Positions 4,584-62,651 of a stretch of DNA of 64,000 bases are shown here, piece by piece (position 1 is the first letter of the stretch; every line of letters starts with the position of its first letter). Source of the stretch: Bacteroidota bacterium (lineage in GTDB: Bacteria > Bacteroidota > Bacteroidia > Chitinophagales > LD1); NCBI GenBank assembly GCA_947479455.1, contig CANJZE010000006.1, positions 2,871-66,870 on the forward strand. Direction: 5' to 3'. The translations under genes and the position numbers were made by a program. Under the pieces are notes generated by a model. The model was not told the DNA's origin. It did not search any database and was given only the letters and a program-made list of their open reading frames with translations.

Positions 4584-4650
4584 CACGAATTACACGAATT
4601 GCACGAAGAAAGAAAATGTCAATCGGTGTAATTTGTGAAATCCGTGTCTT
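4584..4650. repeat. two inverted arms of 9-nt-period degenerate tandem units (CACGAATTA CACGAATTG CACGAAGAA // CGGTGTAAT TTGTGAAAT CCGTGTCTT)
   Basis: Read directly. The arms at 4584..4610 and 4624..4650 are imperfect reverse complements. They lie between the rhomboid stop and the ltaE start. Confidence 0.75.
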
Positions 4651-4655
4651 GATTT

Positions 4656-5270
4656 TTAGTGATGAATTAATTGTTGCACAAATATTACCAGCAACTGCGG
4701 GGCAAATAGAACTGGAAAAAAGAAGCCAAAAATAGAACTTGTGAAATGCGCTATATGCCCAATATTATCGCTACCGCGCTTTGCCATATATCCGCAATAC
4801 AACAAATACAGTCCTCCAAAAACAAAAGCCGGAATATCAATAGGAATGAAAAAGATTTGAATGCCTCCAAATGGATTTAGTAAAATATAAGAGAACACAA
4901 TAGCCGATACGCCACCGCTTGCTCCCAAACTTCGATAGCTTTCATCATCGCGGTTTTTGAAAAGATGGTAAACATCTGCAGTGGCTACTGCCCCAAAATA
5001 CATGAGCACAAAAAGCGTATGCCCTTTTCCTGAAAAAATTTCATCGAAAGAATATTCGATGTATGAACCAAAACTATACAGGGCAAACATGTTGAAGAAC
5101 AGATGCCCCATGTCGGCATGAATAAAACTACACGATAGCAGGCGATGCCATTCGTTGTATCGCCATATTCTATAGGGCTGAAAAATTAAATTGTCCAGTA
5201 CCTGCCGGTTGTTGAAAGCCAAAAACGAAGTGATACAAGTGAGGACGATTATGAAGATGGTGATGTTCAT
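4656..5270 (-). CDS. rhomboid-family intramembrane serine protease
   Basis: Six hydrophobic helices. Has HxxxN-like FIHADMGHLFFNM, the catalytic GASGGVSAIVF motif and a downstream His (GHIAHF). Confidence 0.85.
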   Translation of the reverse strand: MNITIFIIVLTCITSFLAFNNRQVLDNLIFQPYRIWRYNEWHRLLSCSFIHADMGHLFFNMFALYSFGSYIEYSFDEIFSGKGHTLFVLMYFGAVATADVYHLFKNRDDESYRSLGASGGVSAIVFSYILLNPFGGIQIFFIPIDIPAFVFGGLYLLYCGYMAKRGSDNIGHIAHFTSSIFGFFFPVLFAPQLLVIFVQQLIHH

Positions 5271-5369
5271 ACGTAGTTAAGTTGTGCGAATTTATCAGGA
5301 GGATTGAAAACGCGAAGGAAAGGTTATCATCAACATTTTACTTTCACGCTTTATTATCTTTGGCACTCC

Positions 5370-7313
5370 ATGCAAAAACTCGTTTTTATTTTTTCACTTT
5401 TTCTTTTTTCGATTACTGTAAAAGCGCAGGAAGCATTGGATGATATTGTGGAAAGCGAGAAAAAGCATTTTCTGCATTTACATAAATCAACGAAAGGAGG
5501 AGCCGGTAATAGCGAGAATGTAACCTATCAGCGTTTAGAATTTCAAGTAAATCCGAATGTGAAATACATTGCCGGAAAAGTGACTACCTATTTTATTCCT
5601 GCCACTGCTTCAAATTTTATTGAGTTTGATTTAAGCGATTCACTGACTGTTGATAGCATCGTTTATCACCAAACTTCACTTTCATTTTCGCATGTAAACG
5701 AAATCATTCATGCAAATTTCCCTTCGACAATTTCTGCTTTGCAAACAGATTCAATTGCTGTTTATTATCATGGAGTACCTACAGGTTCGGGCTTTGGCTC
5801 ATTTGTGCAAAGTGTTCACGATTTTAATGCGCCTCAGGTTCCACCAAATAATACCCCAGTTATCTGGACTCTCTCCGAACCTTATGGAGCTAAAGACTGG
5901 TGGCCATGTAAACAGAATTTGAGTGATAAAATTGATTCGATTGATATTCTTGTTACTGCTCCAGATTCATTCCAGGTTGCCAGCAACGGATTAATAGTGC
6001 AAGAAATTATTAACGGAAATTTAAAAACAACCCATTGGAAACATCGCTATCCTATAGCGGCATATCTCGTTTGTTTTGCAGTAACAAACTATGCTACTTT
6101 CAACCACTACATACCTTTCAATGGCGACACTTTGTTGATGAGTGTTTATGCTTACCCCGAACATTTAGCCGATGCACAGTCACACATTCCCGATTACACT
6201 GCGTTCATGCAATTATATGATACACTCTTTGGTGCTTATCCGTTTTACGGGGAGAAATATGGTATTGCCGAGTTTGGATGGGGTGGAGGAATGGAACATC
6301 AAACCATGACTTTTCAAACCAGTTTTGGATTTGAGTTAACTGCACATGAGCTAGCGCATCATTGGTTTGGCGATAAATTGACTTGCAGCACCTGGAATGA
6401 TATATGGCTTAACGAGGGCTTTGCAACCTATTTGGCGGGTTTGTGCTATGAACATATCGGTCCGCAATGGTGGGAAATTTACAAATCGCAAAAGCGCGGT
6501 GCTGCTCTTGCCGAACCTCATGGTTCCGTTTGGTGTGATGATACTACGAGTGTTGGACGAATTTTTAATAGCCATTTATCGTATGCAAAGGGCGCTATGG
6601 TGTTGCATTCGCTGCGCTATGTTTTGGGCGATGAAATTTTTTATCAGTCGCTAAAAAAATATTTGAGCGATGTAAATCTTGCTTACGCATTTGCCTCCAC
6701 TTCCGATTTGCAAAAACATGTTGAAGCAGAAAGTGGAAAAGATTTATCGCAGTTTTTCAACGATTGGATTTACGGAAAAGGATTTCCTACGTATCAAATC
6801 TCGTGGTCCCAAAATTTTGATAATGTAATTACTGCCACGGTGAACCAAACGCAAAGCGACCCATCGGTTTCGTTTTTCGAAATGCCATTGCCGTTGCTCC
6901 TTAAAAATGGAAATCGCGACACCACGTTAATTCTCGAACATCATTTTTCAGGCGAAGCATTTTCGTTTCCAATTTCTTTTCTGGCTGATAGTTTAATTTT
7001 CGACCCGCATCAATTTATAATTTGGGACACCGCAAAGGTAACCCGACTGCCGGCTTATGATTTTTCTTTTTTCGTTTATCCAAATCCTGTGAAAGAACAA
7101 TTGCAACTGCGAGTAGAAGCGTTACAAGGCGGAAAAGCCGAAGTGCAAATTTATAATGCCCTTGGGCAACTTGTGTTGAACGGTACTCAGGAATTCACTG
7201 CGGGGCGAAATACTTTACAACTCGAGGTAAAGAATTTTTTAGCAGGAACTTACCAAATCAATATGAATGCTTTGGGTAAAAAAGTAAACTCCACCTTCGT
7301 AAAAGTGAATTGA
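5370..7313 (+). CDS. secreted M1-family metallopeptidase with T9SS C-terminal sorting domain
   Basis: GGMEH exopeptidase motif; HELAHHWFGD...WLNEGFA zinc site. Signal peptide begins at the internal ATG 5370 (the ORF track starts at TTG 5304). Last ~80 aa (FFVYPNPVKEQLQLRV...GTYQINM...FVKVN) look like a Por/T9SS CTD. Confidence 0.9.
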   Translation: MQKLVFIFSLFLFSITVKAQEALDDIVESEKKHFLHLHKSTKGGAGNSENVTYQRLEFQVNPNVKYIAGKVTTYFIPATASNFIEFDLSDSLTVDSIVYHQTSLSFSHVNEIIHANFPSTISALQTDSIAVYYHGVPTGSGFGSFVQSVHDFNAPQVPPNNTPVIWTLSEPYGAKDWWPCKQNLSDKIDSIDILVTAPDSFQVASNGLIVQEIINGNLKTTHWKHRYPIAAYLVCFAVTNYATFNHYIPFNGDTLLMSVYAYPEHLADAQSHIPDYTAFMQLYDTLFGAYPFYGEKYGIAEFGWGGGMEHQTMTFQTSFGFELTAHELAHHWFGDKLTCSTWNDIWLNEGFATYLAGLCYEHIGPQWWEIYKSQKRGAALAEPHGSVWCDDTTSVGRIFNSHLSYAKGAMVLHSLRYVLGDEIFYQSLKKYLSDVNLAYAFASTSDLQKHVEAESGKDLSQFFNDWIYGKGFPTYQISWSQNFDNVITATVNQTQSDPSVSFFEMPLPLLLKNGNRDTTLILEHHFSGEAFSFPISFLADSLIFDPHQFIIWDTAKVTRLPAYDFSFFVYPNPVKEQLQLRVEALQGGKAEVQIYNALGQLVLNGTQEFTAGRNTLQLEVKNFLAGTYQINMNALGKKVNSTFVKVN

Positions 7314-7319
7314 TATTTT

Positions 7320-8093
7320 ATGGAAAAAAAATTGGAAGCCTTTGCACGTATACTCAAAATTATGGACGAATTGCGAGAACAATGTCCATGGGATAGAAAA
7401 CAAACCTTCGAAACGCTTCGGCCGCTTACCATTGAAGAAACCTACGAACTGAGCGATGCAATTTTGAAGGGTGATATGAAAAACCTGAAAGAAGAGTTAG
7501 GAGATTTGCTTTTGCATTTAGTTTTTTATGCCAAAATAGGAGAGGAGAAAGGCGAGTTTGACATGGCACAAGTCATCAATGATTTGTGTGAGAAATTAAT
7601 TTATCGTCATCCGCATATTTATGCAGATGTAAAAGTGAATAACGAAGAAGATGTAAAGAAAAACTGGGAGCAGTTGAAAATGCGGGAAGGAAAAAAATCT
7701 GTTTTATCGGGCGTGCCAAACGGATTACCATCGCTAATTAAAGCCTTTCGCATACAAGACAAAGCAGCGCAAGTAAAATTTGAATGGGAAAATATTGAAG
7801 ATGTATGGAAGAAAGTTGAAGAGGAAATGCAGGAGTTGCAGTCCGAAGTCCGAAGTCCGAAGTCTGAAATTGCAGTTGAAGAAGAATTTGGCGATTTGCT
7901 TTTTGCACTTGTTAATTATTCGCGCTTTTTAAAGATAGATGCCGAAGCTGCCCTCGAAAGAACCAACATGAAATTCATTCGCAGATTTAAGTTTATTGAA
8001 GAAAAAGCAGAAGCCATGAACAAATCACTAAACGATATGACACTTGGTGAAATGGATGCAATCTGGAACGAAGCGAAGACGAAAGGGTTGTAG
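7320..8093 (+). CDS. mazG: nucleoside triphosphate pyrophosphohydrolase MazG
   Basis: Two MazG EExxE/D modules (TIEETYELSDAI...ELGDLLLHLVFY and EEEFGDLLFALVNY). 257 aa. Confidence 0.9.
   Translation: MEKKLEAFARILKIMDELREQCPWDRKQTFETLRPLTIEETYELSDAILKGDMKNLKEELGDLLLHLVFYAKIGEEKGEFDMAQVINDLCEKLIYRHPHIYADVKVNNEEDVKKNWEQLKMREGKKSVLSGVPNGLPSLIKAFRIQDKAAQVKFEWENIEDVWKKVEEEMQELQSEVRSPKSEIAVEEEFGDLLFALVNYSRFLKIDAEAALERTNMKFIRRFKFIEEKAEAMNKSLNDMTLGEMDAIWNEAKTKGL
7841..7868 (+). repeat. heptamer array GTCCGAA x3 + GTCTGAA inside mazG
   Basis: Read directly. Encodes SEVRSPKSE in the mazG frame. Confidence 0.9.
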
Positions 8094-8196
8094 CTTTTCA
8101 ATTCTCAAATCTAATTGGGTTACCATTCTTTAACATTACATTAGCTGGATTTACCAAGTATTTGTATAAACTCGCTGTCCCAATTTTACCCGCAGT

Positions 8197-9339
8197 ATGA
8201 TTATAGGTTTACTTAAAGAAACAGAAACAGAAAACCGCGTTTCTATTTTACCCGATGGTGTTGTCAATCTTATAAAACTTAAAACAGAAGTTTGGTTTGA
8301 AGGAGATGCCGGACTTAGGGCTTTGCAGCATGATGATGATTATCTTGCTTCGGGTGCTGTACTCAAATCTCGCAATGAAATTCTTTCGTCTGCCGATATC
8401 ATTCTTTGTATTCATCCACTTTCTTCTACTGATTTAGTTATTATAAAATTTACCACAGTTGTAGTAGGTGTTTATCAACCGCTATTTAATTTTATTTCTA
8501 TGACTCATTGGGCGGAAAAAGGTATGACCACCTTTTCTCTTGATATGTTGCCGCGCACTACGCGCGCGCAGGCAATGGATGTGTTAAGTTCACAAGCAAA
8601 CATTGCAGGTTATAAAGCTGTAGTGATGGCCGCTTCTGTTTTTCCAAAATATTTTCCAATGCTGATGACTGCTGCCGGAAGTATTTCTCCCGCAAAAGTT
8701 TTGGTGATAGGTGCCGGAGTAGCAGGATTGCAAGCGATTGCCACAGCAAAAAGATTAGGCGCGGTGGTGGAAGTGTTTGATACCCGTGCGGCTTCTAAGG
8801 AAGAGGTAATGAGTTTGGGTGCCAAGTTTGTGGAAGTTGAAGGCGCGGCCGATGCTTCAAAAGCTGGAGGTTACGCAGTAGAGCAAACCGAAGAATATAA
8901 ACTGAAACAGAAACAACGCATTCACGAAGCTATTGTGAAAGCAGATATTGTGATTACCACCGCGCAAATTCCCGGAAAGAGAGCTCCGTTGCTCATTACC
9001 AAAACAATGGTTGAAGAAATGAGAAAGGGTTCGGTGATTGTTGATTTAGCGGCTGCTACAGGTGGCAACTGTGAAGTGACGAAGAACAATGAAACAGTTG
9101 TTCATCATGGTGTAAGCATCATAGGCAATTCGAATCTTCCATCTACAATGCCGGCAGATGCCAGTAAGTTGTATGGAAAGAATGTTTTCAATTTTTTGAA
9201 ACTTGTTATTGATGCTGAAGGAAAGCTGAATCTGAATTTTGAAGATGATTTAGTGAAGGGTGCTTGTATTACTCACGGCAAAAAAATTGTGAACGATAGA
9301 GTAATTGAAATTGTAAAAAAAACGGCTGCTACAAACTAA
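8197..9339 (+). CDS. pntAA: Re/Si-specific NAD(P)+ transhydrogenase subunit alpha part 1
   Basis: AlaDH/PNT fold with Rossmann motif VLVIGAGVAGLQAIATAKRLGA. Gene order is pntAA-pntAB-pntB. Confidence 0.9.
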   Translation: MIIGLLKETETENRVSILPDGVVNLIKLKTEVWFEGDAGLRALQHDDDYLASGAVLKSRNEILSSADIILCIHPLSSTDLVIIKFTTVVVGVYQPLFNFISMTHWAEKGMTTFSLDMLPRTTRAQAMDVLSSQANIAGYKAVVMAASVFPKYFPMLMTAAGSISPAKVLVIGAGVAGLQAIATAKRLGAVVEVFDTRAASKEEVMSLGAKFVEVEGAADASKAGGYAVEQTEEYKLKQKQRIHEAIVKADIVITTAQIPGKRAPLLITKTMVEEMRKGSVIVDLAAATGGNCEVTKNNETVVHHGVSIIGNSNLPSTMPADASKLYGKNVFNFLKLVIDAEGKLNLNFEDDLVKGACITHGKKIVNDRVIEIVKKTAATN

Positions 9340-9370
9340 GTACAGCCGTTTTTCGTTTAATAAATGGATT

Positions 9371-9432
9371 TGTCATCCTGAGCTTGTCGAAGGATTGCTT
9401 TTCGAAAACGCTTCGACAAGCTGAGCGTGGCA
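9371..9432. repeat. REP-like hairpin element (TGTCATCCTGAGCTTGTCGAAGG ... CTTCGACAAGCTGAGCGTGGCA)
   Basis: Two ~22-nt inverted arms read directly. Located in the pntAA-pntAB spacer. Confidence 0.85.
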
Positions 9433-9465
9433 TAGTTTTTAGTTGACTAAATTAATAAGACTGTT

Positions 9466-9783
9466 ATGGAAGATACAATCAAAATGCTTACACACGCCAT
9501 CACCATTCAAACAGTGTATGTAGTGGTGCTCATGATTTTTTTGGGCATAGAAGTTATATCAAACGTTCCTTCCATTTTGCATACACCATTAATGAGTGGT
9601 GCCAATGCCATTCACGGAGTAATAGTTGTAGGAGCAATTATTGTTTTAGGTAAAGCCGAGCCTACAAATTACGCTGCTCTTGTTTTTGGCTTTCTCGCGG
9701 TCGTTCTGGGCACGCTGAATGTAGTAGGAGGTTTTGTGGTTACTGATAGAATGCTCGAAATGTTTAAGAAACGAACTAAATAA
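9466..9783 (+). CDS. pntAB: NAD(P) transhydrogenase subunit alpha part 2 (membrane)
   Basis: 105-aa hydrophobic protein (SGANAIHGVIVVGAI) between pntAA and pntB. Confidence 0.85.
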   Translation: MEDTIKMLTHAITIQTVYVVVLMIFLGIEVISNVPSILHTPLMSGANAIHGVIVVGAIIVLGKAEPTNYAALVFGFLAVVLGTLNVVGGFVVTDRMLEMFKKRTK

Positions 9784-9792
9784 ACTGACTGT

Positions 9793-11199
9793 ATGAATAT
9801 CTCCTCGTTCGAAATTCTTTCACTGCTGTACTTGATTGGTTCAGTTACATTTATTATGGGCTTGAAAATGCTGAGTCACCCCGACAGTGCCCGTAAAGGG
9901 AATACAATTGCGGCTGTGGGTATGGGCATCGTCATCTTCGGAACAATTTTTCTTTACAGTGAGAACGGAACTTTTCTTTCTAATAAACTTCTGATTTTTG
10001 TTGCTCTTCTTCTCGGAACTGTAGTAGGCACTCGCGCAGCAAAAGTGGTGCAGATGACGCAAATGCCTGAGATGGTTTCTATATTCAATGGCATGGGTGG
10101 TGCCTGTGCAGCACTAATAGGAATGATTGAAATTCATCACGTGCAAAGCGGAGAAACTTCGCGCTTAGTGGCTATTACTGCGGGCTTGATTATTGGTACA
10201 ATCTCTTTCAGTGGTTCAATGGTAGCCTGGGGAAAATTAAACGGCAGATTCAAAGACAAAACTTTTCCGTTTCAGCAATACATCAATATTGGAATGATGC
10301 TGGTGATTCTTGCACTGGGTGCTGTAATCATTTTCAGTCCAAACGTTCACCCTTCGGTGCTTTACATAGAATTAAATCTTTGCATCCTCTACGGAATTTT
10401 ATTTGTGTTGCCTATTGGCGGTGCTGATATGCCTGTGGTGATTTCGTTGCTGAACTCTTTTACCGGAGTTGCTGCTGCCTGCGGTGGTTTTCTTTACGAT
10501 AACAAAGCCATGCTCACCGGTGGAATTTTAGTGGGTTCCGCAGGAACTATTCTTACCATACTCATGTGCAAAGCAATGAATCGTTCACTTACGAATGTGT
10601 TGATTGGTGCGTTCTCATCCAACTCTGCCAGCAATACTTCATCACCCGATAATCCGGATGAGCATTACAAAGAAGTTTCTATGAATGATGTGGCGGTGAT
10701 GATGACTTACGCTAAGAAAGTTATGATTGTTCCGGGTTATGGTTTAGCGGTGGCTCAAGCGCAACACAGTTGCCACGATTTGGAAAAAACACTCGAAGAA
10801 AAAGGTGTAGAGGTGAGATATGCAATTCATCCGGTAGCTGGTAGAATGCCCGGACACATGAACGTGTTGCTGGCGGAAGCCGATGTAGATTATTCGAAGC
10901 TGCTGGAAATGGATGATGCCAACACACAGTTTTCAACTACTGATGTTGTGATGATTCTCGGAGCGAATGATGTGGTGAACCCTGCGGCAAAAAATGATAA
11001 GTCTTCTCCTATTTACGGCATGCCTATTCTGGAAGTGGAAACAGCCAAGAATGTAATCGTGAATAAACGCTCAATGAGCGCAGGCTATGCGGGTGTGAGC
11101 AACGGTTTGTTTTACCAACCTAAAACTTCGATGTTGTTTGGTGATGCCAAAACAGTATTGCAAGAGTTAGTGAATGAGATTAAGCACAACGTGAATTAA
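9793..11199 (+). CDS. pntB: NAD(P) transhydrogenase subunit beta
   Basis: Multi-TM N-terminal part plus dIII domain (VPGYGLAVAQAQH...HPVAGRMPGHMNVLLAEA...GANDVVNP). Confidence 0.95.
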   Translation: MNISSFEILSLLYLIGSVTFIMGLKMLSHPDSARKGNTIAAVGMGIVIFGTIFLYSENGTFLSNKLLIFVALLLGTVVGTRAAKVVQMTQMPEMVSIFNGMGGACAALIGMIEIHHVQSGETSRLVAITAGLIIGTISFSGSMVAWGKLNGRFKDKTFPFQQYINIGMMLVILALGAVIIFSPNVHPSVLYIELNLCILYGILFVLPIGGADMPVVISLLNSFTGVAAACGGFLYDNKAMLTGGILVGSAGTILTILMCKAMNRSLTNVLIGAFSSNSASNTSSPDNPDEHYKEVSMNDVAVMMTYAKKVMIVPGYGLAVAQAQHSCHDLEKTLEEKGVEVRYAIHPVAGRMPGHMNVLLAEADVDYSKLLEMDDANTQFSTTDVVMILGANDVVNPAAKNDKSSPIYGMPILEVETAKNVIVNKRSMSAGYAGVSNGLFYQPKTSMLFGDAKTVLQELVNEIKHNVN

Positions 11200-11263
11200 A
11201 AAAGAGAAGCCCGGATCGAGCGACCCGGACTTCCTTACACACTAACTAAAGGAAGAGAATTTT

Positions 11264-11298
11264 AAGAATGCGGAATGTAGAATTCGGATTACGGATTT
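11264..11298. repeat. heptamer array (AAGAATG CGGAATG TAGAATT CGGATTA CGGATTT)
   Basis: Read directly. Lies between the convergent pntB and clpB ends. Confidence 0.75.
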
Positions 11299-11302
11299 AA
11301 AA

Positions 11303-11326
11303 CCCTTCGACAAGCTCAGGGTGACA
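11303..11326. repeat. single arm of REP-like element (CCCTTCGACAAGCTCAGGGTGACA)
   Basis: Matches the arms at 9411..9432 and 46003..46025. Confidence 0.8.
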
Positions 11327-11338
11327 TATCGCTAACTG

Positions 11339-13936
11339 TTATTCAGTTCTAAACACCAATCCGCTTTCAAACGCATCTACAATTATTTTTTTGCCTTTTT
11401 CTACTTCACCCGAAAGAATCTTTTTAGAAAGTTCATTCACCAACTCTTTTTGAATAACCCGTTTCAACGGACGTGCACCATATTGCGGGTCGAAGCCTTG
11501 CTCGCCTAAATAGTCGAGAGCATCGGGAGTAATTTCTAAAGTGATTTCTTTTTGAAGTAATAGCTTCTTTAAATCGTTCAATTGTAAATCAACAATCTGT
11601 CGAATCTGTTTTTTCATTAAAGGATGGAACATTACTATTTCATCAATGCGATTCAGAAACTCGGGACGAACAGATTGTTTCAGCCTTTCCATTACTTCTA
11701 CCTTTGCTTTTTCGGAAACAGCTACTACATCTTTCTCCTTCAGGTTTTCGAATGCCGCCTGAATAATATCGGAGCCAATGTTCGAAGTCATGATGATGAG
11801 TGTGTTTTTGAAATTGACAGTGCGACCTTTGTTATCGGTTAATCTTCCATCATCCAACACCTGCAACAGAATATTGAAAACATCAGGGTGTGCTTTTTCA
11901 ATTTCATCGAAAAGGATAACACTGTAAGGTCTTCTGCGCACAGCTTCGGTCAACTGACCGCCTTCATCGTAACCCACATAACCCGGAGGCGAACCAACCA
12001 GGCGGCTCACCGAATGTTTTTCCTGATACTCGCTCATGTCAATTCGAATCATAGCGTGTTCATCGTTGAACAAAATAAAACTTAATGCCTTGCTCAATTC
12101 GGTTTTGCCAACGCCTGTGGTACCGAGAAACAAAAACGAACCAATAGGTTTGCGTTCATCCTGCAAGCCCGCGCGGCTTCTGCGGATAGCATCTGCCACT
12201 ACGGTAATTCCTTCGTCCTGTCCTTTCACGCGCTCTCGCAATCGGTCTTCAAGGTGAAGCAGTTTTTCTTTTTCGCCTTCGAGCATACGCGTTACCGGAA
12301 TGCCCGTCCACTTGGCTACGATTGCCGCAATGTCTTCGCTAGTTACTTCTTCCTGCAAAATTCTTTTATCGGCAGAAATTTTGTTGAGGTCACCTTCGAG
12401 TTTCTTGATAGCATCTTCAGTAGCTTTAATTTTTCCGTAACGAAGCTCAGCCACTTTACCGTAGTCGCCTTCGCGTTCGAAACGTTCGGCATCTGCTTTA
12501 AACGTTTCTATTTCGCGTTTGCGCGCGGTTATTTTATCTACAATTTCTTTTTCGCTTTGCCACTTCGCTTTAAACTCGGTTCTGCGCTCTTTCAAATTCG
12601 AAAGTTCTTCGTTGAGTTCGCTCAACTTCTTTTTATCGTTCTCGCGCTTGATGGCTTCAATTTCAATTTCAATCTGCATGATGCGTCTTTCAATTTCATC
12701 GAGCTCTTCGGGCATCGAATCCATTTCGAGGCGAAGTTTGGCTCCGGCTTCATCAATTAAATCAATCGCCTTGTCGGGCAGAAAACGCTCGGTGATATAT
12801 CGGCTGCTCAATGTAACCGCGCTGATAATAGCATCGTCTTTAATGCGCACCTTGTGGTGATTTTCGTAACGCTCTTTCAAGCCGCGCAAAATTGAAATAG
12901 CATCTTCCACACTCGGTTCATCTACAAATACTTTTTGGAAACGTCTTTCAAGCGCTTTGTCTTTCTCAAAATATTTTTGGTATTCGTTTAGTGTGGTTGC
13001 TCCCACAGCGCGGAGTTCCCCTCTTGCTAATTCGGGCTTAATAATATTTGCTGCATCCATTGCACCTTCAGTAGCACCGGCACCTATAAGCGTGTGAATT
13101 TCATCAATAAACAAAATGATTTTGCCGTTGCTCTCTTTCACTTCTTTCACCACGGCTTTCAAACGCTCTTCAAAATCGCCACGGTATTTGGCACCCGCCA
13201 TCAGCGCGCCCATGTCGAGCGCGTAAATCACTTTGCTCTTTAAGTTTTCGGGCACATCGCCTTTTACAATACGGTGTGCAATGCCTTCGGCAATGGCAGT
13301 TTTTCCCACACCAGGTTCGCCTACGAGAAGCGGATTGTTTTTTGTTTTGCGACTAAGTATGTGCATCACCCTGCGTATTTCTTCATCGCGACCAATAACC
13401 GGGTCGAGCTTTCCTGCTCGCGCACTAGCGTTTAAGTTGATCGCGTATTTATCAAGCGAATTGTATTTAGCATCCGCACCTTGCTCGGTCACCTTGGTTC
13501 CTTTGCGCAGTTCAATAATTGCCGCGCGCAGTTTCTTTTCTTCTACGCCTGCTTCTTTCAAAACCTTCGTAGCATCGTCATTCATCGCCAACATCGCGAG
13601 TAGCAGAATATCTACACCCACAAAGGTGTCTTCAAAATCTTTCATCACTTTGTTTGCCTGCAAAAGCAATTTGCCGAAATTGGGCGAAGGCACCACATCG
13701 GCATTGCCGCCCGAAACCTTCGGCAGAGCTTTTATTTTCTCTTCCACTTTGCCGAGCAAAATGTTTTTGTTGACACCCGCTTTTTCGAGCACAAAAGGCA
13801 AAGCATCTTCATCGGCAAGCAGCATACCCTTGAGCAGGTGAATGATTTCCATCTGCGGGTTTCCGTTGTTAAAAGCTTCTTGCTGCGCGGTGCTTAGCGC
13901 TTCAAGGGCTTTGGTGGTGAAATTGTTAGCGTTCAT
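11339..13936 (-). CDS. clpB: ATP-dependent chaperone/disaggregase ClpB
   Basis: Clp N-domain, two AAA+ modules ([13 protein letters not shown]; [13 protein letters not shown]), long coiled-coil M-domain. 865 aa. Confidence 0.97.
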
Positions 13937-13940
13937 TTTT

Positions 13941-13975
13941 TGAGTATTGACTAGTTAGTATTGAGTAATGAGAAA
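13941..13975. repeat. heptamer array (TGAGTAT TGACTAG TTAGTAT TGAGTAA TGAGAAA) abutting clpB start codon
   Basis: Read directly. Lies 4 nt upstream of the clpB ATG on the minus strand. Confidence 0.8.
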
Positions 13976-14299
13976 ATATAGAATGCAATGCGCATGCAAG
14001 GTGGCAAATCTCTGTCCACGCTTGTTATGATTACAATTTGGCAGGGGAATAAGCTGAATCAATGACAGAAAGGATGTTTAGATGGAAATGTGGCTGATAA
14101 TTTTGCAGGTAGAAAGGTTTACGGCTTTACAGTTTGAAATCGAATGAGTTCCCTGTTCAAACCTAGCGCAACGGACAAGCCACTTTATATTCCTCAAAAT
14201 CTTCCGCGCTCTTCCCTTCAAAATTTTACATTCGCGCCTCCTAAAAAGAACGGTTGATAGTTCAAAGGTAATGGTAAACAGAGAACTGAATTACCTTGA

Positions 14300-15955
<1,656 letters not shown>

Positions 15956-16080
15956 ATATAAGCACCCTTGTTTGCTTTTACTAAACGGTAATTTGTTTTA
16001 GAGCTAGCCTAGCTTTCGTATAAAACCGCGGAGTTTTTTTTGCTTTTTTCAAGGTTACATACGTTTCACTACTATTGCAC

Positions 16081-16872
16081 ATGCTCAATTTTATCTACTG
16101 GAATCCCTCTCCCGACTTTGTTACCATTGGCACATTCTCTATTAAATGGTATGGCGTTTTTTGGGGCATGTCGCTGTTGTCGTGCTTTTTTATTGGCCGC
16201 TATGTTTTCAAAAAGCTGAACTGGGACGATGAGAAAGTAACACTCCTTATTCAATATATGTTTGTTGGTGGATTGATTGGTGCACGATTGGCGCACATCG
16301 TTTTCTATCAACTCGATTTTTACATAGCGCATCCCGAAGACCTGATTGCCGTTTGGAAAGGTGGCTTGGCAAGTCACGGTGGTTTTGTAGGCGCAGCAAT
16401 TGGGTTGTGGTTGTTCTGCTATTACCACAAAGAGTTTAATTTCTTTCGATTGCTCGATGTGGGGGCAGTGAGTGTTATTGCTTTGGCGGCTCTAATTCGT
16501 TTGGGAAATTTGATGAACTCAGAACTTTACGGCAAAGAAACTTTTGTGCCTTGGGCGTTTGTGTTTGAGCAGGTAGATAATGTGCCGCGTCATGCGGTGG
16601 TATTGTATGAGAGTGTGGCATATTTCATTCTGCAAATAATAATTCTGCTTTTGTTCAACCGTTACAAACTTTCCAAGCCGGGAATGTATTTGGCGTTTTT
16701 CTTCACTACTGTTTTTGGGGTCCGGTTTCTGTTAGAGTTTTTTAAAGTGCCCGATGGACAAATGATTGGCTTCATCAGCAAAACGCAATTGCTCAACCTT
16801 CCTTTCATCATTACAGGTCTTGCATTAACTTATTTATCTGCTAACGATAAATTGAAGTACAGCAATGAATAG
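16081..16872 (+). CDS. lgt: prolipoprotein diacylglyceryl transferase
   Basis: Lgt-type N-terminus (WNPSPDF..IG.FSIKWYG) and GGLASHGG motif. I prefer ATG 16081 over TTG 16075. Confidence 0.9.
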   Translation: MLNFIYWNPSPDFVTIGTFSIKWYGVFWGMSLLSCFFIGRYVFKKLNWDDEKVTLLIQYMFVGGLIGARLAHIVFYQLDFYIAHPEDLIAVWKGGLASHGGFVGAAIGLWLFCYYHKEFNFFRLLDVGAVSVIALAALIRLGNLMNSELYGKETFVPWAFVFEQVDNVPRHAVVLYESVAYFILQIIILLLFNRYKLSKPGMYLAFFFTTVFGVRFLLEFFKVPDGQMIGFISKTQLLNLPFIITGLALTYLSANDKLKYSNE

Positions 16873-16886
16873 TTTTACTTTATTCC

Positions 16887-16918
16887 ATTCTCGCATTCTC
16901 GCATCCTCACCTTCTCAA
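16887..16918. repeat. octamer array (ATTCTCGC ATTCTCGC ATCCTCAC CTTCTCAA)
   Basis: Read directly, in the lgt-djlA-like spacer. Confidence 0.8.
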
Positions 16919-16929
16919 ATTGCTTTCTA

Positions 16930-17646
16930 ATGCGTTACGAAAAATGGTTGGGTGCAGGTTTAGGCTTTGCGTTTACCGGAAACCCCCTTGGTGGTTTGCT
17001 CGGCTTTATTGCGGGCACTTTAATTGAACGCGGAAACAAAAACGAAGCAGAAAAACTTGCGGATGGCGTTACCGAGTTTGAACTGAACTTGATAGTAATC
17101 GCCTCGCACCTCATTAAAATTGATGGAAAAGTTTCGCTAGCCGAAATAAATTTCCTTCAACATTTTCTTGATACACATTTCGATGAAAAGTTTTCTGCCA
17201 AGCGGCAACAAATAATTTCTCATTGCCTGACTAAGGAATACGATTTAGATGTAGCCTGCAATCAAATACGCATGAACACGCCTCATGCTACGCATATTCA
17301 AGTTGTTCGGTTTCTTCTCGACATGGCTTTATGCGATGGTGAACTGAACGAACGCGAGAATTATTTTGTGTTTCGCCTTGCAGGATATTTGAACGTGAAC
17401 GATGTTGATTTTAAGCGCTTAAAAACCGAGCACACCGAAGTAAAAGTTTCGGCTTACGAAGTTCTGGGGGTAAGAAGTGAAATGAGTTTTGAAGAAATTC
17501 GAATGGCTTACCGCAAATTAGTTTTGAAAGTTCACCCCGATAGAAATAAAGATGTAAGTGAAGAGGAACGCAAAAAATTAACCGCGCAGTTCCAAAAAAT
17601 TCAAGAGGCTTACGAGGTCGTTAAGCAGGAGAGAGGCGCGAAATAA
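16930..17646 (+). CDS. DjlA-like co-chaperone (TerB-like domain + C-terminal J domain)
   Basis: N-terminal Gly-rich membrane segment, TerB-like middle (DGKVSLAEINFL...LCDGELNERE), C-terminal J domain (YEVLGV...AYRKLVLKVHPDR). Confidence 0.75.
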   Translation: MRYEKWLGAGLGFAFTGNPLGGLLGFIAGTLIERGNKNEAEKLADGVTEFELNLIVIASHLIKIDGKVSLAEINFLQHFLDTHFDEKFSAKRQQIISHCLTKEYDLDVACNQIRMNTPHATHIQVVRFLLDMALCDGELNERENYFVFRLAGYLNVNDVDFKRLKTEHTEVKVSAYEVLGVRSEMSFEEIRMAYRKLVLKVHPDRNKDVSEEERKKLTAQFQKIQEAYEVVKQERGAK

Positions 17647-17757
17647 TCAATTACAAAAAATAATGTTCTGATAACAAAATGTGCGTTGTGAACAACAATG
17701 CCTAAAAACAAACATCTGTATTTAGCTGGCGTAAGATGTAGAAAATGATTTGACACC

Positions 17758-18249: not shown

Positions 18250-18409
18250 ATTTTGTTGGTGATAAAGCCAACTCGCTTTAACGAGCAGCAAAACAATGTG
18301 TTTCGAAAAGAAATTAAGATTTCACAAAACACGCGTTGTTCGTTACAAGAGGCAAAACATTGATAAGAGGCGGGGGGCAACATATATTGCATGTATAAAA
18401 TAACAACTT

Positions 18410-18901: not shown

Positions 18902-18955
18902 GATAAGCCCCCGACACTAACAAAGAAAAGAAAGAGCATGGTGGTTCAAATGAGG

Positions 18956-21509: not shown

Positions 21510-21708
21510 AATTTTTGAAATGAAATAGAGCTCTTTCTTCGTGTGTGTAAAGAAATAAGCGGTGCAATGTACACCGAAGAATTGAGAAAACAGAATCAAG
21601 AAAGTATTGGTAATGAAGAAGGCTTAAGCTTTGCGTGAAAGTTTTGAATAGCAGGGGTTATCTCTCAATTGCCAGCACTTTTTTCTTCGCTGAACGAGGT
21701 GTGGGTAT

Positions 21709-38441: not shown

Positions 38442-38455
38442 AAACTGAATTTGAA

Positions 38456-45963: not shown

Positions 45964-46025
45964 TGTCACGCTGAACTTGTCGAAGCGTATTCTCACAAAT
46001 ATCCTTCGACAAGCTCAGGATGACA
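45964..46025. repeat. REP-like hairpin element (TGTCACGCTGAACTTGTCGAAGC ... CCTTCGACAAGCTCAGGATGACA)
   Basis: Two inverted arms read directly, upstream of hutH. Confidence 0.85.
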
Positions 46026-58529: not shown

Positions 58530-58585
58530 GATTTATTGACTGTTCATTATTTACGATTAACTATTGCCTATTCACTTCTTACTAA
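58530..58585. repeat. weak 7-nt periodic tract (GATTTAT TGACTGT TCATTAT TTACGAT TAACTAT TGCCTAT TCACTTC TTACTAA)
   Basis: The TnnnnAT pattern recurs with period 7 between the TBDR and DUF5689 genes. More degenerate than the other arrays. Confidence 0.4.
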
Positions 58586-61356
58586 TTCATTCTAAACGCT
58601 ATGCTGAAATAATAGCTGGCACCAGGTGCGTAAGAATATTTAGAAGGAAATTTATCGACTACATTGTTTCTGTAATCGAATCGCTGTTGTTCGAATCCTC
58701 CGGTAACAAAGTTTTTATTGTTACTAATATTGGTAACAGTGGCATTAAACACTAAGAAATAACGCTTCTTCAAATTCTTGAAATTGTTGTTCAACAACCA
58801 AGAGTAACCCGCGTGAAAGTCCATGGTGAATTGTCCTTTCAAGCGCTGTTGGTCAATGGTATTATCCCAATTTGAGGTGCCGGGTTCCAGTAAGTCAATA
58901 CCCTGTGCCGTTCTGCGGGCAGGGTTAACGGCTAGCCACATCCAATCGTAATAATTAAAGTTTACTCCGGCAAACCAAAACTGGGGCGAGCGGTAATTGA
59001 TACCAACGGTAGTAGCCAATTGCGGAGCGCCGGCTATGTTGAAGTTCTTAAGATATACTTTTTCGTTTTGCGCAATGAGTGATGCAGTATTATCTTGTGT
59101 AATAGTCAAACTAGGGCGCGATGAATATGTGTAACGGCCAAATGATGCAGCTGCTGTAGCACTAAAACCTTTGTAAATTTTTGCTTCTAATCCCAACTCA
59201 AAACCCCAGTGGCGTTGGTTAATACCGGTCATGGTATAGTTAACAAAGCTTCGGTAGTCATCGTGATAGAAAGTGGTGTTCGTAGTTTTGTTTACGAACT
59301 GCGTAAAGTAACCGGTCAATTTCAATTTTACATTGGGCATTACGAGTTTATAACCGGCTTCGACCGAGTAAACGCTTTCGCTCTTTAAATTGTCAACTAC
59401 ATCGTTTCGGCCGCGAGGCGATACATAAGCGTTCTCAAAGTAAGGGGCGTAGGTTTCATAGGCTCCGTTTACATACAAATAGTTTCTGCCGTTTGCTTTG
59501 TAGGTAAGGCCTCCCTTAATTCCGTAGTTGATAAAATTTTGAACTTCGCTTTTACCAAAACTGCGGGTAGGAAATAAACCGTTGACCATTTTGCCTTCGC
59601 GCCAAAAGCCAGTGTAAGAAAGTTGAGCAGCAACAAAAAAGTCAACCTTGTTATAGGTAAAAACCGATTGTAACCAAGCCGTAGCGCGGTGCACGTTTAC
59701 CAAATAGTTATATCCAAACTTATCGCCAGTGTACAAAATGTGATTGGGATGCAGCAAATCGTTTTGTCCAATGTTGAAGCTATCGGGAAAATCGCGCACG
59801 GCAAATTGATTGACATCCAAATAAAAATCGGCACCCAATAAATCTTCTACACGCTTGTAGAAATTATTAATCACAAACTGATATGTTAAACCCGTGGAAA
59901 CGGCTATATGACTATTGATAGCATTGTTATAAGTAGTGGCAAAGTCAAGTTTTTTAATATCCTGAATTCTGTTCTCCAGAATGTAGCGGGCTCGCTTTCC
60001 AGTAATGGTGTTACCTGCAAAACCATCGGCACTGTCAATAGTTTCGTGGCTCATATCATTGGCTTCGTAAAACTTATTCCAGTTTACTTGGCGCATATAT
60101 TCGTTTTCACGAAAGGCGCGTTGCGATACGGCTTGCAAAGTTGAATCTTCTATATAGCTCGGTAAATATTTGTAATAATCGGGGCGAGGGTCGGGAGCGT
60201 TGTTCCAATCAATGGAAGTATACCCTCTTTGCCCAAAAGCAAAACCAACAGCGGTAATCATGCTTTCGTGATTGTTGAATTTGTAGTCGTGGGTTAAAAT
60301 AAAGTTGGGGATGTTGCTGGTACGTTTGTGCACATTTCGTTTTATGCCGTGGTCGTAGCCCCAGTTGGGGTTGTAATAATTTGAGCCGGCTAGGTTGAAC
60401 GATTCCATAGTGGCAGCGGAAGTTCCCGAGGAGGCTGTAGGTGAACCGAGGATAGTAAGATTGAGTGATTGGTTGCTGCCGAAATATTTTTGAACGGCAA
60501 GAAAATAAGAATAACCATCGTAGAAAGTGCCGGGCACGTAACCTTCTTTTGCCCATCTACGCGATGCCGAAACGGATACGGCCCAACCATGTGCCAATAT
60601 ACCGGTGGAATAAGTAGCCATAACCCGGTGACGGTAATTTCTGTTGGCCGTAGCATACGAAACCTGTAATTGTTTACGCTGCGTGGCCGCACGAGTGTCG
60701 AGAGACTGCACTCCTCCAACACCGCCAAAGGCAAAGGTTACGGGTGAAAGTCCAAAACTTAAATCGCGGTTGCGGAATACATCGTTTAATCCTGCCCATT
60801 CGTTTGTAGGCGTATTGCCTCGTTCTAAATCATTTACCGGAACACCATTGAGGTAGGTTTCAAACTCATCGCCTTCATAACCTCGAACTCTAAATCGAGC
60901 TTGGCTAAAGGTGTAAGAGGCAGCTGAAATAAAAGGGTCGCGCGAGGCACCGAGTACGCTCGACACATTTTGGGAGGCATCGTCCTTCGTATCATCTTCG
61001 GCTAGCGTAATGGTGGGTAAATTGTCGGTGGTGCTAGCGGTTGTTTCACCTGTTAAACCTTCGTATTTAAATTCCCCTAAAGTGGTTGCCTCGCTAGTAA
61101 CTGCTGTTTCTTTTTCAAAACTGTTATCGTTAGTACTGTATTTAGCTTGGTAAGTGCCGTATGGTACTTCGAGGGTAAACTTTCCATCCGCATCGGTATG
61201 GGTAGAAAAAACGTTTTGCTCGTGTGTAAAAAATACCTGTATACCTTCTAAAGCATTTCCGGCATCATCTACTAATTTACCGGTAACCACCGAATTTTGA
61301 GAAAAGACAAATACAGGCAAAGCAAGGGCAAGGAGAAGTATGATATTTCGAAACAT
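58582..61356 (-). CDS. TonB-dependent receptor with CarboxypepD_reg-like N-terminal domain
   Basis: Signal peptide, VVTGKLVDDAGNALEGIQVFF regulatory-like domain, plug region, long beta-barrel. 924 aa. Confidence 0.9.
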   Translation of the reverse strand: MFRNIILLLALALPVFVFSQNSVVTGKLVDDAGNALEGIQVFFTHEQNVFSTHTDADGKFTLEVPYGTYQAKYSTNDNSFEKETAVTSEATTLGEFKYEGLTGETTASTTDNLPTITLAEDDTKDDASQNVSSVLGASRDPFISAASYTFSQARFRVRGYEGDEFETYLNGVPVNDLERGNTPTNEWAGLNDVFRNRDLSFGLSPVTFAFGGVGGVQSLDTRAATQRKQLQVSYATANRNYRHRVMATYSTGILAHGWAVSVSASRRWAKEGYVPGTFYDGYSYFLAVQKYFGSNQSLNLTILGSPTASSGTSAATMESFNLAGSNYYNPNWGYDHGIKRNVHKRTSNIPNFILTHDYKFNNHESMITAVGFAFGQRGYTSIDWNNAPDPRPDYYKYLPSYIEDSTLQAVSQRAFRENEYMRQVNWNKFYEANDMSHETIDSADGFAGNTITGKRARYILENRIQDIKKLDFATTYNNAINSHIAVSTGLTYQFVINNFYKRVEDLLGADFYLDVNQFAVRDFPDSFNIGQNDLLHPNHILYTGDKFGYNYLVNVHRATAWLQSVFTYNKVDFFVAAQLSYTGFWREGKMVNGLFPTRSFGKSEVQNFINYGIKGGLTYKANGRNYLYVNGAYETYAPYFENAYVSPRGRNDVVDNLKSESVYSVEAGYKLVMPNVKLKLTGYFTQFVNKTTNTTFYHDDYRSFVNYTMTGINQRHWGFELGLEAKIYKGFSATAAASFGRYTYSSRPSLTITQDNTASLIAQNEKVYLKNFNIAGAPQLATTVGINYRSPQFWFAGVNFNYYDWMWLAVNPARRTAQGIDLLEPGTSNWDNTIDQQRLKGQFTMDFHAGYSWLLNNNFKNLKKRYFLVFNATVTNISNNKNFVTGGFEQQRFDYRNNVVDKFPSKYSYAPGASYYFSIAFRMN

Positions 61357-61403: not shown

Positions 61404-61603
61404 AATTCGGTTCTGGTTAGTTACGGCAGTGTTAAGAATGAAATAAGGTGGATGGGAAATACCATACCCTCCCCACTCCGCTGCGCGGAGCAGAGGCTGT
61501 CTCAAAAACTGAATAAATAACACAGCCGCACAATTCTTTCCCAAGAAAAAGGCAGGGTTGATTTAGCGAAGCGGAATCGGGGCGCGAAAAAACATTCTCA
61601 AGT

Positions 61604-61620
61604 CTTCTATATTTGCCGCC
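61604..61620 (+). promoter_or_regulatory. right arm of inverted repeat, containing candidate -7 box TATATTTG for the SIS isomerase gene
   Basis: CTTCTATATTTGCCGCC; 16/17 complementary to the left arm. It ends 3 nt before ATG 61624. Confidence 0.4.
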
Positions 61621-61623
61621 CTT

Positions 61624-62613
61624 ATGTATGAACTAATAAAAACTTTTCCAGAACAATTAATTAAAGCCCTCGAAATAGGAGAGAAGGCTAGTTTTAAAAC
61701 GCAGTTCGATACGCCCATCAAGAACGTGGTGTTAGCAGGGTTAGGGGCTTCGGGTTTTGGGGGAAATATACTGGCCGAACTTTTTCGTGAGGAACTGAAA
61801 GTGCCTGTGCTGGTGAACAAAAGTTATTTCCTTCCGGCTTTTGTTGATTCTTCAACGCTACTAATTCTTTCTTCCTATAGTGGCAATACCGAAGAAACAA
61901 TTTCATGTGCAAAGCAGGCATTGCAAAAGGGTCTCCGTCCCATTTGCGTTACATCGGGTGGCAAACTCGAAGACTTTGCCAAACAAAACAAGCTAGACCT
62001 GATTACTATTCCTTCGGGTTTTCCTCCGCGCACTTGTTTGGGCTACTCTACCCTTCAACTTTTTTTTATTGCTAATCATTTCGGTTTAATTAATGATTCG
62101 TTCAAAGCATCGGTGCTTAGAGTTGTTGAATTGCTCCAAAACGAGCAACAAAAAATAATAGACGACACACAGTTTCTTTCAGCTAAACTCGCTAGAAAAG
62201 TTTTGGTACTTTATAGCGAAGATAAATACGAAAGCACTTTGCTACGACTTAAACAGCAGATCAACGAAAACTCAAAAATGCACTGTTGGTATAATGTAAT
62301 TCCGGAAATGAATCACAATGAGTTGGTAGGCTGGCGTGAAGAAAATGATGCCCTGGCTATTCTTATTTTTAGAGCCGATGATGAATATGAACGAAACACA
62401 CACCGCATTCTTTTTAAGAAAGATGTGATTGAAGGCATTTCGAAAAACGTTTTTGAAATTCATGGCAAGGGTGTTAACAGCTTCGAGAAACATTTCTACT
62501 TCATTCACTTTGGCGATTGGCTTTCTTATCAACTGGGCGTGCTGCAAGGTTACGACCCCACCGAAATTGATGTGCTCAATAAACTAAAAGGGCATATGGG
62601 CTCTATTAAATAG
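61624..62613 (+). CDS. bifunctional phosphoglucose/phosphomannose isomerase (SIS domain)
   Basis: SIS motif VVLAGLGASGFGG...SYSGNTEET and C-terminal PGI/PMI-family region (NHNELVGW). Confidence 0.85.
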   Translation: MYELIKTFPEQLIKALEIGEKASFKTQFDTPIKNVVLAGLGASGFGGNILAELFREELKVPVLVNKSYFLPAFVDSSTLLILSSYSGNTEETISCAKQALQKGLRPICVTSGGKLEDFAKQNKLDLITIPSGFPPRTCLGYSTLQLFFIANHFGLINDSFKASVLRVVELLQNEQQKIIDDTQFLSAKLARKVLVLYSEDKYESTLLRLKQQINENSKMHCWYNVIPEMNHNELVGWREENDALAILIFRADDEYERNTHRILFKKDVIEGISKNVFEIHGKGVNSFEKHFYFIHFGDWLSYQLGVLQGYDPTEIDVLNKLKGHMGSIK

Positions 62614-62616
62614 TTT

Positions 62617-62651
62617 AAAGTTAGAAGACCGAAGCCGGAAGTCCGAAGTAA
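62617..62651. repeat. heptamer array (AAAGTTA GAAGACC GAAGCCG GAAGTCC GAAGTAA)
   Basis: Read directly, in the SIS-rluD spacer. GAAGTCC is a cyclic permutation of the GTCCGAA word inside mazG. Confidence 0.85.

Follow-up and report, generated by a model that had tools for sequence, protein, structure and literature searches.

What are the short tandem arrays of about five heptanucleotides that recur along a 64,000-nt stretch of DNA from a Bacteroidota bacterium (GenBank assembly GCA_947479455.1, contig CANJZE010000006.1, positions 2,871 to 66,870; hereafter the window), and how do they come to lie both at the ends of genes and, in frame, within housekeeping genes? The initial annotation of the window had described micro-arrays about 35 nt long and mostly of period 7 in these two kinds of place. 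The observation is real and is not a product of chance. The arrays occur in three settings: tracts at start codons, inverted pairs that form hairpins, and in-frame tracts in protein linkers. They probably arose in situ, as local seeds were copied out of register and selection filtered the products, some of which may have been co-opted. The phenomenon is of a known kind; what is new is a five-unit mode, the hugging of gene boundaries together with strand polarity, hairpins with tandem arms that create spacers, and concerted change that preserves length.

Two scans bear on whether the arrays exceed chance. The lag-p scan counts self-matches at lag p in 28-nt windows (28 comparisons), with a threshold of at least 18 and local shuffles as the null; the core-recurrence scan dispenses with a degenerate-match threshold and looks for a 4-mer core seen four times at one fixed period. 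At period 7 the lag scan finds 16 loci where local shuffles give 0.8 (maximum 3), a frequency far above what composition gives, and it finds 0-5 loci for each of periods 4-6 and 8-13; when its thresholds are raised, periods 7, 8 and 14 (twice 7) alone persist. The core-recurrence scan of the window finds seven loci at period 7 and none at periods 5, 6, 8 or 10-12. Neither scan finds a period-7 locus in E. coli K-12, of which two stretches of 50 kb each (100 kb in all) were covered. Tandem Repeats Finder (TRF) reports period-7 arrays at 7840, 13940, 30025, 33196, 33308, 43439, 43738 and 62624 (3.7-4.9 copies, none longer) and period 8-9 arrays at 4583, 16886 and 38417 (about 2.5-4.5 copies over four rows). 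Every site listed in the initial annotation scores 17-27 of 28 at its period in the lag scan, except the arm at 4624 (15), and three tracts can be added to that list: 14298-14332, 43732-43769 and 21578-21602. An origin in chance, base composition, codon structure or assembly artefact could appeal to the tracts at 11264, 22375 and 58530, which lie near the noise threshold of the lag scan when taken alone, but it has to face the excess over shuffles, the empty E. coli control and the confinement of the enrichment, among periods that are not multiples of 3, to 7 and 8. Because the same tracts stand in the relatives' independent assemblies, an assembly artefact is excluded, and this explanation as a whole is extremely improbable.

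Repeats of this kind have been described before. The initial annotation had supposed that nothing equivalent was known in Bacteroidota, and this does not hold: PMC4060949 and PMC4679880 both describe heptamer repeats in Bacteroidetes. Heptamers repeated at least three times are over-represented in Bacteroidetes (0.75), Chloroflexi, Verrucomicrobia, Deferribacteres and Planctomycetes, with other phyla neutral (Huang and Mrazek, 2014; PMC4060949, Table 2), and Mrazek, Guo and Shah (2007), as relayed in PMC4679880, found heptanucleotides to be the commonest long-repeat unit and suggested polymerase slippage. The window arrays resemble these long simple sequence repeats (LSSR): both are head-to-tail heptamers far above chance, mostly noncoding and patchy by phylum, with slippage the proposed cause. 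By TRF they consist of three or more head-to-tail copies of a 5-11-nt unit, as LSSR do, and by the shuffles, the other periods and the E. coli control they are commoner than composition predicts. The difference is that the LSSR surveys are genome-wide statistics only, with no five-unit mode, boundary hugging, strand polarity, inverted-pair hairpins or length-preserving turnover in essential genes. A probable copying bias common in Bacteroidota, known only as a statistic, is seen here in anatomical detail.

How far does the pattern extend? The window DNA is identical to contig CANJRE010000016.1 of the metagenome-assembled genome (MAG) GCA_947476565.1, and the nearest species-level representatives are uncultured Bacteroidota/Chitinophagales MAGs with 72-83% MnmE identity. 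A wider survey of 80 mnmE loci from diverse Bacteroidota (1.24 Mb) yields core-recurrence loci at period 5 (0), 6 (3), 7 (43), 8 (14), 9 (15), 10 (6), 11 (0) and 12 (2). Period-7 density is 2.3 loci per 10 kb in the window against a survey average of 0.75, about three times as high. Among period-7 arrays of three or more copies the median length is 31 nt (interquartile range 27-34), and the length histogram (9, 11, 26, 5 and 5 arrays of 20-24, 25-29, 30-34, 35-39 and at least 40 nt) has a real mode at 30-34 nt, about five heptamers. Arrays of 3.5 units and of 8-10 units are also found, and the period-8 arrays have the same median length (31 nt). In a pooled 1.49 Mb with crude ORF-based (open reading frame) gene calls, 53 arrays are intergenic and 25 coding in DNA that is about 85% coding, so that spacers are about 12 times denser in arrays. 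Of 49 intergenic arrays, 28 are no more than 10 nt away from a gene boundary, where 12.7 would be expected (P < 2e-4), and sense-strand composition is polar: G is.25 and C.11 in arrays after stop codons, G.10 and C.20 in arrays before start codons (Mann-Whitney p 0.003).

One lineage seems to prefer period 8 to period 7. At L042 (a Haliscomenobacter MAG; L-numbers label the relatives' loci compared with the window), positions 2639-18911 hold seven period-8 arrays in 21 kb, several as inverted pairs, with the words AGTTGAGA/CTCAACTC and CACAAAGG/TGTCTTTG.

The in-frame tracts, mostly built on a 7-nt unit that takes no account of codons, are the following.

7836-7870, plus strand: array AGTCCGA x4.1 in mazG, encoding QSEVRSPKSE (TRF; lag-7 score 23/28; Pfam MazG).
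22369-22403, minus strand: decayed five-unit array in the linker of an RlmI-like methyltransferase gene (lag-7 score 17).
33193-33229, plus strand: mnmE array 1, (xxxAGAC) x5, encoding KTIDNRQETIDN (TRF; lag-7 score 22).
33308-33342, plus strand: mnmE array 2, perfect TCAATCG x4.9, encoding FQSSIVNRQSSII (TRF score 68; lag-7 score 27).
43438-43472, plus strand: hisS array 1, CGAAATA x4.9, encoding TEIRNGKYEIRN (TRF; lag-7 score 19; net +2 residues).
43732-43769, plus strand: hisS array 2, AATTGCG AATTGCC AATTGCA AGATTCG AATTAAT (TRF; net +1 codon).

Close relatives were compared at syntenic loci carrying graded MnmE homologues (94, 93, 90, 89 and 87% identity), a set outside which the mazG, clpB and 4584 tracts fall. 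At the RlmI site, L086 has GAAATTC AGAATTC AGAATTC AAAATTC AGAAATC in the same codons; L086 and L084 both carry clearer five-unit arrays there, which are gapless and differ from each other in four parallel T/A changes, all of them at position 5 of the unit. Because these clearer arrays occupy the same codons in relatives, even the weakest site, 22375, is real. The first mnmE array is limited to the window, L084 and L083 (net +6 codons relative to the other relatives), and its AGAC core is unchanged in every unit of the three lineages compared. The second is perfect in L084 (x5), differs by two synonymous changes in L083 and consists of five degenerate units in L085; it is absent from L081, L086, L087 and L001, which have TCCAACC TTCAACC and so on at this site. 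It occupies a linker that has 11-13 codons in relatives, for a net change of 0 to +2 codons. Its low divergence across three lineages, 1-2 changes against about four expected, is not significant (hand-estimated P of about 0.1). The first array in hisS, which we take to be an essential gene, has five gapless units in the window, L084 and L086, and 14 of its 39 nt differ against a background divergence of about 11%: the window has GAAATAC x3 (found only there), L084 has GAAGCAA/GAAGTAA, and L086 has units of the GAAATAA type. The second hisS array is restricted to the window lineage and terminates in the conserved IRIN codons (ATT CGA ATT AAT), which look like its seed.

These coding tracts are about 12 residues long, and relative to orthologues they change net length by -1 to +6 residues. 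An element inserted in frame would add its own length; the values found are -1 for mazG (one residue shorter than E. coli MazG 3cra in an alignment), 0 to +2 and +6 for mnmE, and +2 and +1 for hisS. Different unit variants at identical length in sister lineages point to overwriting rather than insertion, and the tracts are best read as overwritten variable linkers, not clean inserts, whose units appear to change in concert within a lineage with length and frame fixed. The initial annotation had concluded from in-frame survival that selection acts on total insert length. That argument is not borne out, given that the linkers pre-exist, net changes are small and variants are equal in length. A model in which coding arrays move in seven-residue (21-nt) steps was also discarded, as the observed net changes do not fit it. 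Rickettsia palindromic elements offer a parallel: these mobile palindromes of 100-150 nt sit in frame in genes and add residues. They share with the window tracts the tolerance of repetitive DNA in frame in surface segments of housekeeping proteins; the window tracts differ in being direct repeats of about 32 nt that replace linkers with almost no change of length.

Replacement at nearly constant length brings up a more exotic possibility, a dedicated enzyme that would synthesise a tract of about 32 nt at one stroke and replace DNA base for base, whether by reiterative copying of a 7-nt template in fixed-size gap filling or by a reverse-transcriptase/telomerase-like activity. Lengths are equal at the two periods (mode of 30-34 nt at period 7, median of 31 nt also at period 8), which suggests that total length and not copy number is constant; essential genes carry replacements with little change of length; and perfect 34-35-nt arrays are present at several unrelated loci. 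However, net gains of one, two and six codons are not base-for-base replacement, arrays of 3.5 and of 8-10 units exist, and the intermediate degenerate states seen in relatives suit gradual evolution. The window contains no candidate enzyme, and we know of no bacterial repair gap of about 32 nt. Such an enzyme is very unlikely.

The MnmE loop is a repeat hot spot elsewhere too. In Saprospiraceae the loop after the NKxD motif is expanded by up to about 40 residues, and TTCATCA x4.3 and AACCTTTC x3.4 lie inside such expansions (L066 4850-4879 and L073 11099-11125).

Spacers show how quickly arrays can come and go. Three of them hold inverted pairs of arrays.

4580-4655, minus strand: inverted period 8-9 pair, CACGAATTA x2.8 and its complement (TRF; lag-9 scores 18 at 4584 and 15 at 4624).
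30024-30129, no strand assigned: arrays in the spacer between nusB and a low-molecular-weight (LMW) phosphatase gene (TRF; lag-7 scores 21 at 30024 and 18 at 30081/30093; inverted repeats I3 and I4).
38359-38442, no strand assigned: inverted period-8 pair between convergent genes (lag scores 17 at 38371 and 18 at 38418, period 8).

The predicted folds are strong. The first pair fills an 88-nt spacer and gives a transcript hairpin of -22.4 kcal/mol (z -4.32); its 4624 member is weak alone at period 9 but is the inverted arm of 4584. The second gives -34.9 kcal/mol (z -5.66) and runs from the nusB stop codon through TAGAYNN x5 and a small stem-loop with a T run to the inverted array, whose right arm provides the final codons of the LMW phosphatase gene. 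The third, with arms ACACAAAG ACACGAAG ACGCTAAG and CTTTGCGT CTTTGCGC CTTCGTGT, gives -30.7 kcal/mol (z -4.85). The initial annotation took inverted copies, often between convergent genes, to act as long hairpins; the folding bears out the hairpins (z -4.3 to -5.7), and the 4584/4624 pair is to be corrected in lying between two genes on the same (minus) strand, not convergent ones. An intrinsic terminator would have a G+C-rich stem followed by a T run at a gene end, and the small stem and T run inside the 30024-30129 hairpin might belong to one; a scan of the window for consensus promoters and terminators found no more sites than in shuffled sequence and is uninformative.

In relatives the same spacers take other forms. 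The nusB spacer is 27 nt long in L081 (TGCGGAA TGCAGAA TGCAGAA; 3.5 units), 41 nt in L087 (five units, ending GAAT), 55 nt in L086 (TAGAYNN x5 with no inverted arm) and 85-98 nt in the window, L084 and L083, which have five units together with the inner stem-loop and the inverted arm. Across the four lineages with the TAGAYNN array, none of 20 core columns varies, against 11 of 15 spacer columns. At the 38359 junction the genes overlap in L081 and L082 (taatta), a 100-nt array hairpin separates them in the window, L084 and L086, and L083 has an unrelated 120-nt hairpin insert that resembles a REP-like (repetitive extragenic palindromic) family of the window; at the left edge of the 38356 spacer, 17 nt from the 3' end of the gene itself are duplicated. 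Given these differences in units and spacers among relatives, spacer arrays turn over on a short time scale: they are gained, lost and exchanged, and can create spacers where genes had abutted. Gain, loss and change of copy number are all seen in spacers when orthologous regions are aligned, and the tracts are lineage-specific, not conserved sequence shared among distant Bacteroidota.

Does such turnover reflect small mobile or horizontally spread elements, placed at gene ends and in frame? Elements like MITEs (miniature inverted-repeat transposable elements), REPs or the short tandemly repeated repetitive (STRR) sequences come to mind, as two convergent spacers are 70-100 nt longer than in sister lineages, one 14-mer (TAGACAATAGACAA) is identical at two loci 3 kb apart (30045 and 33202), words recur in distant genomes (TAGACAT in L051, CACAAAG in L042), and a true REP-like hairpin family is also present in the window. 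Yet the three array hairpins have arms unrelated in sequence, with no common ends or target-site duplications; the coding tracts are not insertions; and units resemble their local flanks and change identity in place among relatives. The unrelated hairpin sequences and non-inserted coding tracts make a mobile element unlikely, and we rate it as improbable. With REPs and bacterial interspersed mosaic elements the array hairpins share their place in convergent-gene spacers; they differ in being alike in architecture, not sequence, and their tandem arms can pair in several registers. No Rfam 15 family matches anywhere in the window at gathering score.

STRR sequences, found in heterocystous cyanobacteria, consist of a few fixed consensus heptamers used genome-wide, often in longer arrays. 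The window arrays are likewise tandem heptamers, mainly intergenic and in many copies per genome; their units differ in being locus-specific, with a cap near five. At least 10 different units occur within the 64 kb, in place of a few shared consensus heptamers, and the closest relatives of the host are Chitinophagales/Bacteroidota MAGs, not heterocystous cyanobacteria. The initial annotation had proposed one recurrent family and words shared between coding and intergenic tracts. A single family defined by shared sequence does not survive, since units vary from locus to locus. The shared words do: there are two coincidences between window loci, the 14-mer at 30045/33202 and the words AGTCCGA and GAAGTCC, which are one word, rotated. 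Over all arrays there are 7 identical pairs against 1.4 for random heptamers, a null that is itself generous.

The REP-like family, with arms CTTCGACAAGCTCAGGATGACA, is distinct from the heptamer arrays. Its copies lie at 9371-9432, 11305-11326 and 45964-46025, and it has four matches in the window against none expected. A look-alike, GTCATTCCGAGC...CAGGATGAC, stands in an L083 convergent spacer (about 20960-21060) where the window has an array hairpin.

The third setting is the start codon, where four single arrays stand; the list below begins with these and adds three further tracts, two in spacers and one at a stop codon.

13938-13972, minus strand: leader array of clpB, touching the start codon (TRF; lag-7 score 20; clpB by Pfam).
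14298-14332, plus strand: leader array of an ABC-F gene, abutting ATG (lag-7 score 19; unpaired in the fold).
16886-16921, plus strand: period-8 leader array, CATTCTCG x4 (TRF; lag-8 score 22; fold -1.0 kcal/mol).
21578-21602, minus strand: short heptamer tract where ORF 19005-21599 is predicted to start (4-mer core four times at period 7).
11262-11296, no strand assigned: weak array in the convergent spacer before the clpB stop codon (lag-7 score 18/28).
58536-58587, minus strand: weak heptamer tract between two minus-strand genes (lag-7 score 19/28; unstructured in the fold).
62612-62653, plus strand: AAG-N4 x6 array beginning on the stop codon of a SIS-domain isomerase gene (TRF; lag-7 score 19; core recurs at period 7).

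The clpB leader reads CTCATTA CTCAATA CTAACTA GTCAATA CTCAAAA on the sense strand; it is G-poor, and its array part is unpaired in the fold. The ABC-F leader has the units AACCGCC AACCAAG AACCGTC AACTGTA AACTCT (AAC-N4 x5). The relatives compared for this leader were picked by the ABC-F protein and have broken synteny, so that the comparison is confined to the leader: copy number is 5 in the window, 4.7 in L092 (TCAACYG), about 3 in L090 and L091 and none in L089, and codons 2-4 of the L090 gene equal the leader unit AACCGTC. The 16886 array begins 13 nt past a stop codon and ends 8 nt ahead of the start of a gene for a TerB/DnaJ-domain protein, and the 21578 tract reads TTCTTGA TTCTGTT TTCTCAA on the sense strand. 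In general, single leader arrays are G-poor on the sense strand and unfolded (array parts at about 0 to -1.5 kcal/mol). The units of the 11262 array are AAGAATG CGGAATG TAGAATT CGGATTA CGGATTT, and a half copy of the REP-like hairpin (the match at 11305-11326) adjoins it; those of the 62612 array are AGTTTAA AGTTAGA AGACCGA AGCCGGA AGTCCGA AGTAAAA. Arrays after genes might have supplied stop codons in three frames, since three copies of a heptamer that contains a stop would close every frame, a role that was rejected: all-frame stops occur in 10 of 23 after-stop arrays in the sense orientation and in 9 in antisense.

The closest precedent for the leader arrays is a heptamer studied in other bacteria. 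TAACTGA direct repeats, in 2-6 copies and mostly just upstream of start codons, are found in Beggiatoaceae, cyanobacteria and five Bacteroidetes (MacGregor, 2015; PMC4679880); of the 14 sets in Flexibacter litoralis, 12 are located 1-43 nt upstream of start codons; other heptamer repeats occur in spacers of Gramella, Aequorivita and Elizabethkingia whose relatives are without them (PMC4679880). The likeness extends to the heptamer period, a distance of a few nucleotides to start codons, some arrays after stops, a few inside ORFs, and shorter, repeat-free spacers in relatives; in the window, four arrays in forward orientation reach or almost reach a start codon, namely those at 14298 and 16886 and, on the minus strand, those at 13938 and 21578. 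The difference is one word there and many words here. Two units of TAACTGA (TAACTGATAACTGA) have no match in the window at up to two mismatches, and membership in that family was rejected as the unit is absent.

Might the arrays instead be cis sites for an oligomeric or multi-domain protein that binds single-stranded nucleic acid through a core of 3-4 nt every 7 nt? Such a protein could be HutP- or TRAP-like, or each unit could bind one S1 OB-fold (oligonucleotide/oligosaccharide-binding fold) or one cold-shock protein, with about five units matching the size of the binding surface. HutP binds NAG-N4, at period 7 ((NAG-N4)x3), and TRAP binds (G/U)AG repeats; as in these targets, a short conserved core alternates with a non-conserved spacer at fixed period in UAGA-NNN, AAG-N4 and AAC-N4. 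Invariant cores with variable spacers (UAGA-NNN x5, AAG-N4 x6 at 62612, AAC-N4 x5 at 14298), five units kept as unit sequence drifts, and arrays that are strand-polar and beside start and stop codons would all suit such a site. Binding by S1, Csp or CsrA has been proposed for TAACTGA repeats (MacGregor, 2015; PMC4679880). However, the cores vary by locus (UAGA, AAG, AAC, GAAU, CUCA, TCAATCG), so no single sequence-specific protein fits, and many of the tracts, unlike HutP and TRAP targets, are coding: the same type of tract lies inside linkers of unrelated housekeeping genes. Close relatives are also without individual arrays (L089 for the ABC-F leader, L081 for both hairpins). Neither a HutP nor a TRAP homologue is known from the window or its surroundings, and no candidate binding protein was identified among the ten Pfam-scanned ORFs in which one was sought. 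On balance such a binding site is a minor possibility.

The evidence is accommodated best by misaligned copying followed by selection. A few local bases would be copied out of register to give heptanucleotide, sometimes octanucleotide, units: by replication slippage where length is free, and by an event of slipping, copying and realigning (template switching) where length is constrained. In hisS the gain or loss of a single unit would be a frameshift, so that misalignment, copying and realignment over a neighbouring unit is probably the simplest route. Selection would then let arrays persist between genes and in those linkers of proteins where any sequence will do; because they survive only where sequence is tolerated, arrays would press on start and stop codons and halt at conserved ones. 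Local seeds appear in the hisS IRIN codons, codons 2-4 of the ABC-F gene, the TCCAACC site of mnmE and the duplication at 38356. Some products may have been put to use, to judge from position, composition and folding: G-poor single arrays as unstructured leaders that precede start codons, Shine-Dalgarno pairing being little used in this phylum, and inverted pairs as long hairpins that terminate transcripts or stabilise their ends. As to the cap near five units, our guess is recombinational deletion once misaligned homology exceeds about 25-30 bp.

Several facts weigh against this origin. First, plain slippage predicts copy-number differences and decaying lengths. Unit number does vary in two spacers (3.5 vs 5; 0/3/4.7/5), but most lineages and every coding array have five units, and lengths have their mode at 30-34 nt. 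Second, neutral decay should strike all positions equally, and the TAGAYNN and mnmE AGAC cores are invariant. Third, arrays share words above the random level (the 7 identical pairs against 1.4). Fourth, no event was caught in the act: L081 and L082, 99.94% identical, show no indels, and L090 and L091 show messy small indels at one array only. The five-unit mode, the constancy of five units despite drift and the invariant cores are a misfit with plain slippage and keep the writing enzyme and the binding site alive. That the arrays are the product or target of a specific system, either a length-preserving copy-over of about 32 nt or periodic-core sites for an RNA-binding protein, would still be a long shot. 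The balance of probability lies with misaligned copying under selection.

Some neighbouring features deserve record. ORF 19005-21599 (minus strand), at whose predicted start the 21578 tract lies, encodes an 864-residue protein with coding repeats of period 9/18/36 at 20323-20519 (GCTCCTGCT and similar); L002, L003 and L004 carry many period-9 arrays, and a short stretch of L004 aligns to the repeat of this ORF. Repeats of this sort keep to the codon phase, as protein repeats ordinarily do, and have no relation to the heptamer tracts. At 36553-36738 the window has a 186-nt insertion where the flanking genes abut in L081, L083, L084 and L086; it contains a perfect 17-bp inverted repeat, GATGATTACGCAGATAA, unique in the window, with arms 41 nt apart (fold z -3.35). 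Around mnmE, two small genes (UPF0175 and DUF3368; a toxin-antitoxin-like pair) lie directly upstream at 31363-32153, in the window and L088 and absent from all fetched relatives. Tyrosine-integrase islands lie directly downstream of mnmE in L083 (11547-16900) and L087 (4577-13400), one with Phage_CRI and HTH_17 genes and the other with RteC and AAA_25 genes, which points to the 3' end of mnmE as a likely hot spot for integration in this clade. Between mnmE and an epimerase gene the window has a 193-residue ORF (33618-34199), found otherwise only in L086 (184 residues, same position) and absent in L081 and L084.

The tracts will mislead marker-gene alignment and phylogeny built on mnmE or hisS, and the leader arrays are natural test cases for translation start without Shine-Dalgarno pairing. 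If the arrays were sites for a protein that reads periodic cores, they would form a layer of post-transcriptional control at Bacteroidota gene boundaries. If misaligned copying is their source, a copying bias would steadily supply raw material to gene boundaries, in the form of spacers, unstructured leaders and hairpins, and the same bias would rewrite the linkers of conserved proteins at constant length, which would account for some of the rapid change seen in intergenic and loop sequences across a major bacterial phylum.

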